Assembly: GCA_017538365.1 (NCBI GenBank)
Contig: JAFYIZ010000012.1
Span: 60,920 to 124,919, forward strand
From: a bacterium
GTDB lineage: Bacteria > UBP6 > UBA1177
Direction: 5' to 3'
DNA: 64,000 bases
Part shown: piece after piece, positions 5,397-7,237 of the stretch
Position numbering within the stretch: position 1 is the first letter of the stretch
How the letters are laid out: every line of letters starts with the position of its first letter
The notes under the pieces: generated by a model
What the model saw: only the letters and a program-made list of their open reading frames with translations
Database searches by the model: none
Told to the model about the DNA's origin: nothing
Program-made: the position numbers and the translations under genes

Positions 5397-6515
5397 ATGC
5401 CCGTAAAAGATTTGCATGCACACCCTTTTGATGAGGGAACTATCACCAAACTCGAAATATTTGAAAATTATGCCAAAGAATGGCTGCCTACTTTTATTAT
5501 GAGTTATCCAAACAAAGATTTATGGATGTTCGACTTTTTTGCTGGAACAGGCAAAGATCAGAATGGAGTTGCCGGCACTCCCATTCGCTTGTTACAACAA
5601 GTTAAAAGCCAGGCTGGCAACATTTTCAATCAAAAATGTAAAATCAATATTTGTTTGAACGAACTCGATGAAAACAAGTTTAATTCTATGCAAATATGCT
5701 GTGACGAGTTTGTACATAGTAATAATGAATTGCTAAGACTCTATGATAAATATTTATTTCTTCACTATCGTAATGGTGATTTTGCCGAACTTTTTCCTAA
5801 GACATTAGATACTATAAAAGAAAACCCTTCCCTGCTGTTTCTTGACCAAAACGGAATGAAATTTCTGGCTGATAAATATATTATGAATTTAGAAAGCTTG
5901 CCACATACAGATTTCTTGTATTTTTTATCTTCCTCATATGTTTTGAGATTTGGGAATACTCCTGAGTTTCAGACAAATTTAAGGTTGGACATGGAAAAAA
6001 TAAAGGAGAATCCATACAAGTATGTTCACAAAAACATTCTTGAGCAACTAAAAAACAAATTACCCAATGATTCTGATCTAAAATTATATCCTTTCACAAT
6101 CAAAAAAGGAGCAAATATTTATGGTATAATTTTTGGAGCAAAACATCCATTGGCAGTTGACAAATTTCTCAAAACTGCTTGGAATAAAAACAACATCAAT
6201 GGAGAAGCCAACTTTGATATTGATGAAGACAATAAAAAATGTCAATTGACTATATTTGGAGAAAAACCTTTGACAAAAATAGAAGGTTTCCAACAGCGGT
6301 TGCGAGAATTGATACTGAACGGAGATATAAAAACCAATCGTGAAGCTTATGATTACACAATTTCTCAAGGACACATTGACAAACATGCGGCTGAAGAAAT
6401 TTCAAAAATGAAAAAAGAAGGACTTATAGATTTTGAAGGAAGAACTCCTTTGGTAAACTATGAACAAACATATAAAAACAAGCGAATAATAACATTCCAG
6501 GTAATAAAAAAATGA
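5397..6515 (+). CDS. Hypothetical protein, putative three-Cys-motif partner protein (TcmP-like). N-terminus carries a DFFAGTG Rossmann-like motif.
   Basis: 372 aa. AT-rich codon usage. ATGA overlap with the downstream DUF5131 gene. The pairing with a Gp37/Gp68 protein is the basis of the TcmP guess. Confidence 0.45.
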   Translation: MPVKDLHAHPFDEGTITKLEIFENYAKEWLPTFIMSYPNKDLWMFDFFAGTGKDQNGVAGTPIRLLQQVKSQAGNIFNQKCKINICLNELDENKFNSMQICCDEFVHSNNELLRLYDKYLFLHYRNGDFAELFPKTLDTIKENPSLLFLDQNGMKFLADKYIMNLESLPHTDFLYFLSSSYVLRFGNTPEFQTNLRLDMEKIKENPYKYVHKNILEQLKNKLPNDSDLKLYPFTIKKGANIYGIIFGAKHPLAVDKFLKTAWNKNNINGEANFDIDEDNKKCQLTIFGEKPLTKIEGFQQRLRELILNGDIKTNREAYDYTISQGHIDKHAAEEISKMKKEGLIDFEGRTPLVNYEQTYKNKRIITFQVIKK

Positions 6516-7237
6516 AAACGACAAAAATAGAATGGACTGATAAAACATGGAATCCTGTTACAGGATGCACCAAGATTTCGCAGGGATGCGTTCATTGCTA
6601 CGCCGAAACGATGACCCGCCGACTTAATGCAATGGGATTGGAGAAATACGCAAACGGATTCAATGTCACTCTGCATGAAGATTGTCTATCCGAACCATTG
6701 GCATGGAAACAACCTCACACCATTTTTGTTTGTTCAATGAGTGACTTGTTTCACAAGGATGTTCCTTTTGAATTTATAAACAAGGTTATGGAAACCATAC
6801 GTATGACACCTCAGCACCGTTATCAGCTATTGACCAAACGGGCGGAACGCATGGCTGAATACTTTCTATCACATGATATTCCGCAGAACGCATGGTTGGG
6901 AGTTACAGTTGAAGTTCAATCCTCTAAATCCAGAATAGAATCTCTGCGCTCACTTGACGCACCTATCCGCTTTCTCTCTTGCGAGCCTTTGATCGAAGAT
7001 TTGGGAACTTTGAATTTGGAGAACATTGACTGGGTTATTGTAGGAGGGGAAAGCGGACCGCAAGCAAGACCTATGAAAGAAGAGTGGGTAAAATCAATAA
7101 AAGAACAAGCCGAACGTCAGGGATCAGCCTTTTTCTTCAAACAATGGGGCACCTGGGGCAGCGACGGTATCAAAAGAAACAAACACAAAAACGGAAAACT
7201 GATTGACGGAAAAATTTTTCAGGCAATGCCGGCTTAA
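6512..7237 (+). CDS. Phage protein Gp37/Gp68 family (DUF5131) three-Cys-motif protein
   Basis: N-terminus [32 protein letters not shown] matches the family hallmark (IEWTD..WNP..GC..S.GC..CYA). 241 aa. Confidence 0.7.
   Translation: [241 protein letters not shown]

Follow-up and report, generated by a model that had tools for sequence, protein, structure and literature searches.

Two overlapping genes in the genome of a UBP6 bacterium (lineage UBA1177) encode a correctly identified, widespread and already known protein module whose function is uncharacterised: TcmP, a three-Cys-motif partner protein, followed directly by a member of the DUF5131, or phage Gp37/Gp68, family. We examined the pair within a 64,000-nucleotide stretch of contig JAFYIZ010000012.1 (assembly GCA_017538365.1, positions 60,920 to 124,919), hereafter the window, whose own numbering is used for coordinates below. 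An initial annotation made from the letters alone had named both families, and matches to PF07505 and TIGR04474, together with the gene overlap read in the sequence, show that both its observation and its naming of the families were correct. The module counts as already known because the defence-system database PADLOC lists it as PDC-M30 and NCBI names both proteins; the window therefore contains no new kind of system.

A coupled pair of known protein families

Both open reading frames (ORFs) lie on the plus strand where the initial annotation had placed them, with tcmP at 5397..6515 (372 amino acids) and the DUF5131 gene at 6512..7237 (241 amino acids). Reading the sequence directly confirmed that they share the 4 nt of an ATGA stop/start overlap (6512..6515, plus strand). 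The junction reads ...AAA AAA TGA / ATG AAA ACG..., an arrangement that, judged from sequence, indicates translational coupling. The N-terminal three-cysteine peptide of the downstream ORF and the DFFAGTG segment of the upstream one are likewise both present. Hidden Markov model (HMM) searches placed the 241-residue protein in PF07505 (E = 1.7e-106, 355.6 bits against a cutoff of 28.9), with residues 3-240 aligned to profile positions 1-243, which bears out its proposed membership of the Gp37/Gp68 family. The 372-residue protein matched TIGR04474, the TcmP model (E = 1.8e-35, 123.2 bits against a cutoff of 53), with residues 15-264 covering profile positions 3-262 of 263. By both HMMs, by adjacency and by its cysteine triad, the window's pair is thus a member of the PF07505 and TIGR04474 pair and shows no difference from it. 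No second copy of either gene was found within the 64-kb window, and a promoter and terminator scan of 5100-7500 gave no signal above chance.

The same two proteins match the PDC-M30 components of PADLOC-DB 2.0 over their full length (TcmP to PDC-M30A, E = 6.7e-138; DUF5131 to PDC-M30B, E = 6.2e-117, with PDC-M41B matched almost equally well) and sit in a defence-type island; PDC-M30 is itself an unvalidated candidate, as PDC systems are guilt-by-embedding predictions (PMC10855318; bioRxiv 10.1101/2024.01.29.577857). In Pseudomonas aeruginosa, PDC-M30 is carried by 32 of 100 strains, 68.8% of which are phage-resistant, a correlational result (PMC10855318). NCBI annotates these exact proteins under TcmP/three-Cys names (MBR6421459.1 and MBR6421460.1), and PHROGs holds DUF5131 as phrog_2045, "unknown function", and has no TcmP family. 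We found no functional study of DUF5131, TcmP or PDC-M30 in the searchable literature; a paper on Hna of Sinorhizobium meliloti goes no further than naming a TcmP gene among those upregulated together with hna. Searches of Pfam, NCBIfam, PHROGs, the Protein Data Bank (PDB) and the literature agree with the earlier remark that neither protein has a known biochemical function. The defence or anti-defence role suggested at the same time is also the one that PADLOC proposes, and it fits the genomic contexts described below.

The pair across bacteria, plasmids and viruses

To describe the pairing in other genomes, we fetched 80 genome loci by relatives of the window's TcmP (47-70% identity), covering Bacteroidota, Acidobacteriota, Spirochaetota, Cyanobacteria and Alphaproteobacteria. 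At 78 of the 80, tcmP is followed directly on the same strand by a DUF5131 gene, so that the two ORFs are co-conserved as an adjacent pair. In one of the two exceptions the contig ends 9 bases past tcmP; the other has no DUF5131 gene within 6.8 kb and, as the sole unpaired locus with downstream room, appears to hold an orphan tcmP (L046:10001-11074). The two genes overlap at 51 of 71 junctions (40 by 4 nt as in the window, 9 by 1 nt and 2 by more) and are separated by at most 18 nt at the remainder. Beyond these two, no gene is conserved at the loci; the largest cluster of neighbours is present at 11 of the 80. The distance matrices of TcmP and DUF5131 are correlated (Mantel r = 0.45, a value reached by 0 of 999 permutations), a correlation that is significant but moderate and that we do not take as evidence of physical contact between the two proteins.

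The order and orientation of the genes vary on mobile elements. In the Gordonia phages Jablanski and Fairfaxidum the pair is convergent, with gp43 of Jablanski matching TIGR04474 at 117 bits; it is divergent on a plasmid of Mycolicibacterium chubuense, and in tandem behind a Type ISP restriction enzyme on plasmid p74 of Leptospira biflexa. DUF5131 is itself common in viruses: 180 GenBank phage records and no fewer than 590 stretches of IMG/VR contain members. With an iterated HMM based on diverse TcmPs, a TcmP-like ORF was detected at 40 of 80 IMG/VR DUF5131 loci, in every case immediately adjacent to the DUF5131 gene (on the same strand at 15 loci upstream and at 6 downstream, and convergent at 19); the other 40 had no detectable partner. 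These counts overturn an interim conclusion that phage DUF5131 is nearly always solo, drawn from tblastn searches that had returned first 0 and then 4 TcmP matches in phages; given the 40 adjacent ORFs found by the iterated HMM, that shortage reflected insufficient sensitivity. By nearest neighbour, paired DUF5131 proteins are mixed with solo ones. As half of the viral loci lack a detectable partner, TcmP is a frequent but not obligatory partner of DUF5131. Homologue clusters numbered more than 2000 for TcmP and more than 8000 for DUF5131.

One locus encodes a 427-residue DUF5131 ORF with a C-terminal PFIN (plasmid fertility inhibition) domain (L047:11132-12412), flanked by a D12 methyltransferase with an EcoRI-like nuclease on one side and a McrB-like AAA_5 ATPase on the other. 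It is a single example, and its sequence could reflect either a true fusion or a missed stop codon.

DUF5131 resembles radical SAM enzymes

The downstream protein carries a three-cysteine motif, C19-x6-C26-x2-C29 (6566..6598, plus strand), whose conservation in alignments marks the cysteines as the presumed ligands of a [4Fe-4S] cluster. C19, C26 and C29 are invariant in 75 aligned partner proteins and are the only universally conserved cysteines among them. The Cx6Cx2C spacing is kept in 103 of 106 diverse family members from bacteria, plasmids and phages. Across these 106 sequences, from phages to Bacteroidota, 62 positions are at least 90% identical, including the blocks IEWT, TWNP-x2-GC, GC-x2-CYA, SM-x-DLFH, LTKR, E134, S-x-EPL, GGESG and FFFKQWG. 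DUF5131 is among the most strongly conserved proteins without an assigned function that we met in this analysis.

AlphaFold2 predicts an alternating beta/alpha partial barrel (mean pLDDT 75), with core residues 60-210 mostly above 90 and low values for the cysteine loop and the C-terminus. A profile search intended to deepen the alignment reached only 67% identity, and these two regions stayed at low confidence. The best Foldseek matches of the model in the PDB are all spore photoproduct lyases (SPL; 4k9r, 4fhf, 4rh0, 4fhe and 4fhc), at probabilities of 0.98-1.0, E of about 0.01, a TM-score of about 0.45 and 10% identity, followed by generic TIM barrels. The predicted model therefore has the partial TIM barrel of the radical S-adenosylmethionine (SAM) fold, its cysteine loop itself being modelled at low confidence. 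RadicalSAM.org assigns DUF5131 to the radical SAM subgroup Megacluster-5-2, beside SPL at 5-3 (PMC9477430). The protein also matches TIGR04471, the radical SAM mobile pair protein A, at 100.2 bits (E = 1.1e-28), well below the equivalog cutoff of 355, and the two are related but not identical families.

Conversely, the canonical Cx3Cx2C motif is absent from DUF5131, Pfam gave no PF04055 match at E ≤ 0.01, and no SPL family appeared among its Pfam or NCBIfam matches. Searches of PDB sequences with both proteins of the pair, by single sequence and by profile, yielded no meaningful match. Variant cysteine spacings are known within the radical SAM superfamily. Because of the SPL-like fold, the RadicalSAM.org listing and the likeness to TIGR04471, yet with no Cx3Cx2C motif or PF04055 match, we describe DUF5131 as a divergent, radical-SAM-like protein with presumed cluster binding. 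The original description of the family as distantly radical-SAM-like is sustained by these similarities and by the invariant cysteine triad.

Three known systems offer comparisons. SPL (PDB 4fhc, 4fhe and 4k9r), which acts on DNA, shares with DUF5131 the partial TIM barrel, an N-terminal cysteine triad and a neighbouring cluster within Megacluster 5, whereas it has 338-340 residues and a Cx3Cx2C motif (CMGHCHYC), compared with about 240 residues and Cx6Cx2C in DUF5131; the likeness is one of fold, and DUF5131 is not a member of the SPL family. At the time of one report, SPL and the SPL-like gp53 of phage M6 were the sole radical SAM enzymes known to act on DNA, both of them on a pyrimidine within DNA (PMC8989533). 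An isomerase in thymidine hypermodification, gp53 is a phage-encoded radical SAM enzyme that alters a base within DNA (PMC8989533) and serves as a working precedent for the putative activity of DUF5131, although its Cx3Cx2C motif lies at residue 125 and it belongs to a multi-gene 5-hydroxymethyldeoxyuridine pathway (kinase, transferase and pyridoxal phosphate enzyme), none of whose members accompany DUF5131. In the radical SAM mobile pair A/B (TIGR04471/TIGR04470), DUF5131 resembles protein A, and the product of a gene found near some of the pairs described below (PA0069 family) resembles protein B, both with scores far below the cutoffs of 355 and 410. The partner in the mobile pair is a second radical SAM protein, unlike the partner of DUF5131, TcmP, with its predicted methyltransferase fold.

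TcmP has a predicted methyltransferase fold

The AlphaFold2 model of TcmP (pLDDT 85, pTM 0.81) comprises an N-terminal helix, a Rossmann-type core with a beta-alpha-beta pattern and a C-terminal winged helix domain. The core (aa 15-264; 5439..6188, plus strand) coincides with the TIGR04474 region and is predicted to adopt a class I SAM-methyltransferase-like fold. In the PDB, Foldseek returned significant matches to the model only among class I SAM-dependent methyltransferases (probabilities of about 1.0, E from 3.5e-4); TM-scores to the solved structures are low (0.3-0.57), and no specific family stands out. Among the Pfam and NCBIfam matches of TcmP there is no methyltransferase family. The C-terminal winged helix-turn-helix (wHTH) domain (aa 277-349; 6225..6443, plus strand) matches PF22560, GMT-wHTH (E = 6.5e-8, 33.4 bits against a cutoff of 27), and is modelled with pLDDT above 90. 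We did not find the origin of "GMT" in that name. Only about half of the wider TcmP family, judged from 54 diverse members, carries this domain.

TcmP diverges quickly. We found 2056 homologues, and over the 54 diverse members only about nine positions are at least 80% identical. Those that are kept comprise K18 and Y25 in the N-terminal helix, D46-x-F-x-G50-x-G52, G60, D150 and G153, and they fall at the cofactor and substrate site of a methyltransferase. The DFFAGTG segment, which the initial annotation had found reminiscent of a SAM-binding motif, is a genuine methyltransferase motif I (D46-F-F-A-G50-T-G52; 5532..5552, plus strand) within the predicted class I fold; its residues D46, G50 and G52 are invariant in the window's TcmP clade and 89-98% conserved over the 54 diverse proteins. 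Most members have an acidic residue (E or D) at position 89, after strand 2. At the motif IV position after strand 4, as placed by the model, the window's protein reads D150-Q-N-G153 (5844..5855, plus strand), with D150 conserved at 98% and G153 at 83% across the family. The strand-4 motif is DP[Y/F/W]G in most TcmPs and an invariant DQNG in the window's clade, which keeps the D and the G and has lost the aromatic residue. TcmP thus shares with amino-methyltransferases of the (D/N)PP(Y/F) motif IV type the predicted fold, the DxFxGxG motif I, the acidic residue after strand 2 and, in most members, D-P-[YFW]-G; it differs from them in the DQNG of the window's clade, in matching no curated methyltransferase family and in its low structural similarity scores.

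The linker that joins the methyltransferase-like core of the model to its winged helix domain, predicted at low confidence, contains a further segment, W-x2-N-x2-NGEANFDI (aa 262-275; 6180-6221). This segment does not vary within the window's clade, is missing from distant TcmPs and could be a docking or active-site loop.

Genomic neighbourhoods of the pair

A census of 135 immediate neighbours of the pair at 39 genome loci revealed a prevalence of genes that act on DNA. The commonest Pfam families were N6, C5 and D12 DNA methyltransferases (5, 4 and 4 occurrences, respectively), and further neighbours included DUF1016/YhcG nucleases, HsdS, HNH_2, McrB-like AAA_5, ResIII, SLFN/AlbA_2 and AbiEii-like ATPases. 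PADLOC matches among the neighbours comprised many restriction-modification models and PDC-S02.

In the temperate Gordonia phages, the pair is found in the immunity/integrase region. In Fairfaxidum (L173, pair at 3629-5921), tcmP, annotated as "methyltransferase", lies 4 nt downstream of the immunity repressor gene on the same strand and near the integrase gene, and the convergent DUF5131 gene is next to the integrase. In Jablanski (L085, 2980-4849), the integrase and a RelBE module flank the pair. These positions suggest that the Gordonia phage pair may be expressed in the lysogen. The neighbours of solo viral DUF5131 genes include orphan DNA methyltransferases (9 matches at 40 loci), RusA, DnaB, Rad52, an exonuclease and the anti-Thoeris gene Tad3.

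Eleven Chitinophagaceae-type loci (including L041, L045, L050, L053, L058, L060, L061, L065 and L079) differ in having a DNA-damage neighbourhood. In 10 of the 11, a radical SAM gene of the PA0069 family (457 bits) lies directly upstream of tcmP and is co-directional with it. This gene is adjoined by a LigT-like gene, umuD and umuC and, at three loci, by the putative DNA-repair pair TIGR03916/TIGR03915. The PA0069 protein scores 86 bits against the radical SAM mobile pair protein B (TIGR04470; cutoff 410).

A variable hotspot in the window

In the window, the pair is part of a low-GC island of 6.7 kb (5171..11829; GC 0.37-0.39, compared with 0.42-0.51 in the flanks) flanked by the genes for an aromatic amino-acid lyase and a flavodoxin, delimited by GC content, domain matches and comparison with related strains. 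Three further genes follow the pair on the plus strand. The first (7452..9530) encodes a 692-residue protein in which an N-terminal HSDR_N_2 nuclease-like domain is fused to an N6 adenine methyltransferase, the second (9527..10951), which overlaps it by 4 nt, an S subunit with two target-recognition domains, and the third (10976..11803) a GIY-YIG and DUF4357/RAMA protein that matches the PADLOC candidate PDC-S14. By eye, the nuclease-like domain of the 692-residue protein has a D...ExK arrangement (RADIVIFD...IVVELK). No HsdR was found near the genes at 7452-10951, and their products resemble MAD2 and MAD5 of MADS, at scores below the cutoffs only. From sequence, these two genes look like a BcgI-like or Type IIG-like system, or a system of M and S subunits only. 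Homologues of the GIY-YIG/DUF4357 protein (72-75% identity) directly follow the TcmP pair in two other genomes (L028:11833-12660 and L029:11838-12662).

The gene arrangement of the window recurs in several ruminant-gut metagenomes, whereas other related strains differ in what they carry at this site. Close relatives with a 94% identical TcmP have the lyase, the pair, a 98-residue DUF4357 remnant and flavodoxin, and lack the equivalent of window positions ~7473-11509 in an alignment; the remnant corresponds to the C-terminal part of the GIY-YIG/DUF4357 protein (L081:7884-8180). In place of the pair, a Fic/HTH gene, or SIMPL together with Fic, is present in other strains that belong to the same 90% lyase cluster. 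Comparison of the window with these loci (L081 and L174-L182) thus gives at least four contents between the lyase and flavodoxin genes: the pair with restriction-modification and GIY-YIG genes, the pair with the remnant, Fic with HTH_24, and SIMPL with Fic. Because related strains differ in their contents at the same position, the interval is a variable hotspot, in which the pair is an independent cargo module.

The initial annotation had drawn attention to a restriction-modification system directly downstream of the pair. The methyltransferase and S-subunit genes are indeed there (7452..10951), but their adjacency is incidental, since close relatives keep the pair without them. Neither the methyltransferase gene nor the S gene has a homologue that is a conserved neighbour in the 80 loci. 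Given these relatives, and with no third gene conserved at the loci, we rejected the possibility that the pair forms a functional unit with the downstream restriction-modification system. The hotspot also provides a clean natural comparison, as one chromosomal site holds the pair with restriction genes, the pair alone or no pair.

Elsewhere in the window, a single ORF of 5092 amino acids (14180-29458, minus strand) is rich in cysteines and repeats, with a Laminin_G_3 match in a homologous contig. GC content drops again to ~0.38 at 60001-64000, as in the 5171-11829 island, and this part may be another acquired segment.

A possible function in DNA modification and its alternatives

Our preferred interpretation, which we put forward tentatively, is that the pair is a mobile two-enzyme module performing radical chemistry on a DNA base, with DUF5131 as the conserved catalyst and TcmP as a fast-evolving subunit that targets DNA or presents the base. 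We favour it because of the precedent of SPL and gp53, the methyltransferase signature and wHTH domain of TcmP, and the DNA-modifying, DNA-cutting and DNA-repair genes found in the neighbourhoods. In such a mechanism, a [4Fe-4S] cluster bound by the three N-terminal cysteines of DUF5131 would cleave SAM reductively and thereby initiate the radical chemistry. TcmP would bind SAM through its methyltransferase fold, with motif IV located where amino-methyltransferases contact a flipped-out base, and in the window's clade its winged helix domain would bind DNA. In a complex of the two proteins, TcmP would recognize DNA, present the target base and possibly methylate it, after which DUF5131 would perform the radical step; the outcome would be an unusual covalent DNA modification, or the removal of one. 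That DUF5131 and TcmP jointly install or remove an as yet undescribed radical-SAM-dependent base modification, for example at a methylated pyrimidine or an exocyclic amine, is a more specific proposal that we regard as conceivable though doubtful.

With respect to biological role, we slightly favour anti-phage defence over counter-restriction or DNA repair. The PADLOC listing, the behaviour of the hotspot and the prophage immunity cassettes speak for defence. For counter-restriction there are the phage early-region contexts and the absence of any effector, and for repair the resemblance to SPL and the Chitinophagaceae neighbourhood. The last two can each be developed into a different account of the module. 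It could be an orphan epigenetic or counter-defence module that, as orphan phage methyltransferases do, modifies the DNA of its carrier element or host against restriction and does not attack phages. The abundance of DUF5131 in phage records, the absence of a nuclease or toxin partner, and the company that solo phage DUF5131 keeps (orphan C5, N6 and D12 methyltransferases, RusA, Rad52, DnaB and Tad3, typical of an early or anti-defence region) all point this way. We nonetheless consider this account unlikely, as the bacterial pair occurs in chromosomal hotspots and defence islands and not on mobile elements alone, and the pair of the temperate Gordonia phages lies in an immunity/integrase cassette and not among the lytic genes, which would better fit a defence expressed by the lysogen. 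A pair dedicated to DNA repair or damage tolerance, in which TcmP would recognize a lesion and DUF5131 would reverse it by radical chemistry as SPL does, seems quite unlikely to us. SPL, a repair enzyme, is the best fold match of DUF5131, the Chitinophagaceae-type loci bring together the PA0069, LigT-like, umuD, umuC and TIGR03916/TIGR03915 genes, and DUF5131 and PA0069 resemble halves A and B of the radical SAM mobile pair. However, these 11 loci share synteny within one clade and so probably represent a single evolutionary event; elsewhere the pair resides in variable islands rich in restriction and defence genes, and a patchy horizontal distribution, hotspot behaviour and fast divergence of TcmP would be unusual for housekeeping repair.

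The substrate might also be something other than DNA, either RNA (tRNA or rRNA) or a nucleotide or small molecule that is made or destroyed, for instance an antiviral nucleotide analogue as with the radical SAM viperins, or through consumption of SAM. Among characterized radical SAM enzymes with nucleic-acid substrates, most modify RNA, motif IV of the DP[YF] type also occurs in rRNA and tRNA amino-methyltransferases, and viperins illustrate how a radical SAM enzyme can defend by means of a small molecule; moreover, half of the TcmP family dispenses with the wHTH domain. Set against this are nearest structural relatives that act on DNA, genomic contexts dominated by DNA-modifying and DNA-cutting genes, and the wHTH domain carried by the window's TcmP clade, and we consider a non-DNA substrate quite unlikely. 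We give very little credence to the idea that the two genes are co-located without being a functional enzyme pair, TcmP being either a passenger or a degenerate protein of methyltransferase fold that regulates DUF5131 through its wHTH domain. The aromatic residue of motif IV is indeed lost in the window's clade, TcmP does carry a wHTH domain, and DUF5131 is often alone. Yet motif I, the acidic residue of motif II, D150 and G153 persist over extremely divergent TcmPs, which argues that TcmP is a ligand-binding enzyme; adjacency survives inversion and reordering across phyla, with translational coupling the rule; and, because half of the TcmPs lack the wHTH domain, regulation cannot be the shared function of the family.

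Implications

The window adds nothing new on the membership of the two families. What it adds is material for study: the TcmP/DUF5131 family is large, uncharacterised and amenable to experiment, and the hotspot's natural variants would suit such work well. If DUF5131 acts on DNA, it would form a large third group beside SPL and gp53, possibly with a new DNA mark in the conflict between phages and their hosts. Were the two proteins to install or remove a radical-SAM-dependent base modification together, they would constitute a new biochemical class of epigenetic defence or counter-defence, common to bacterial defence hotspots and hundreds of phages.

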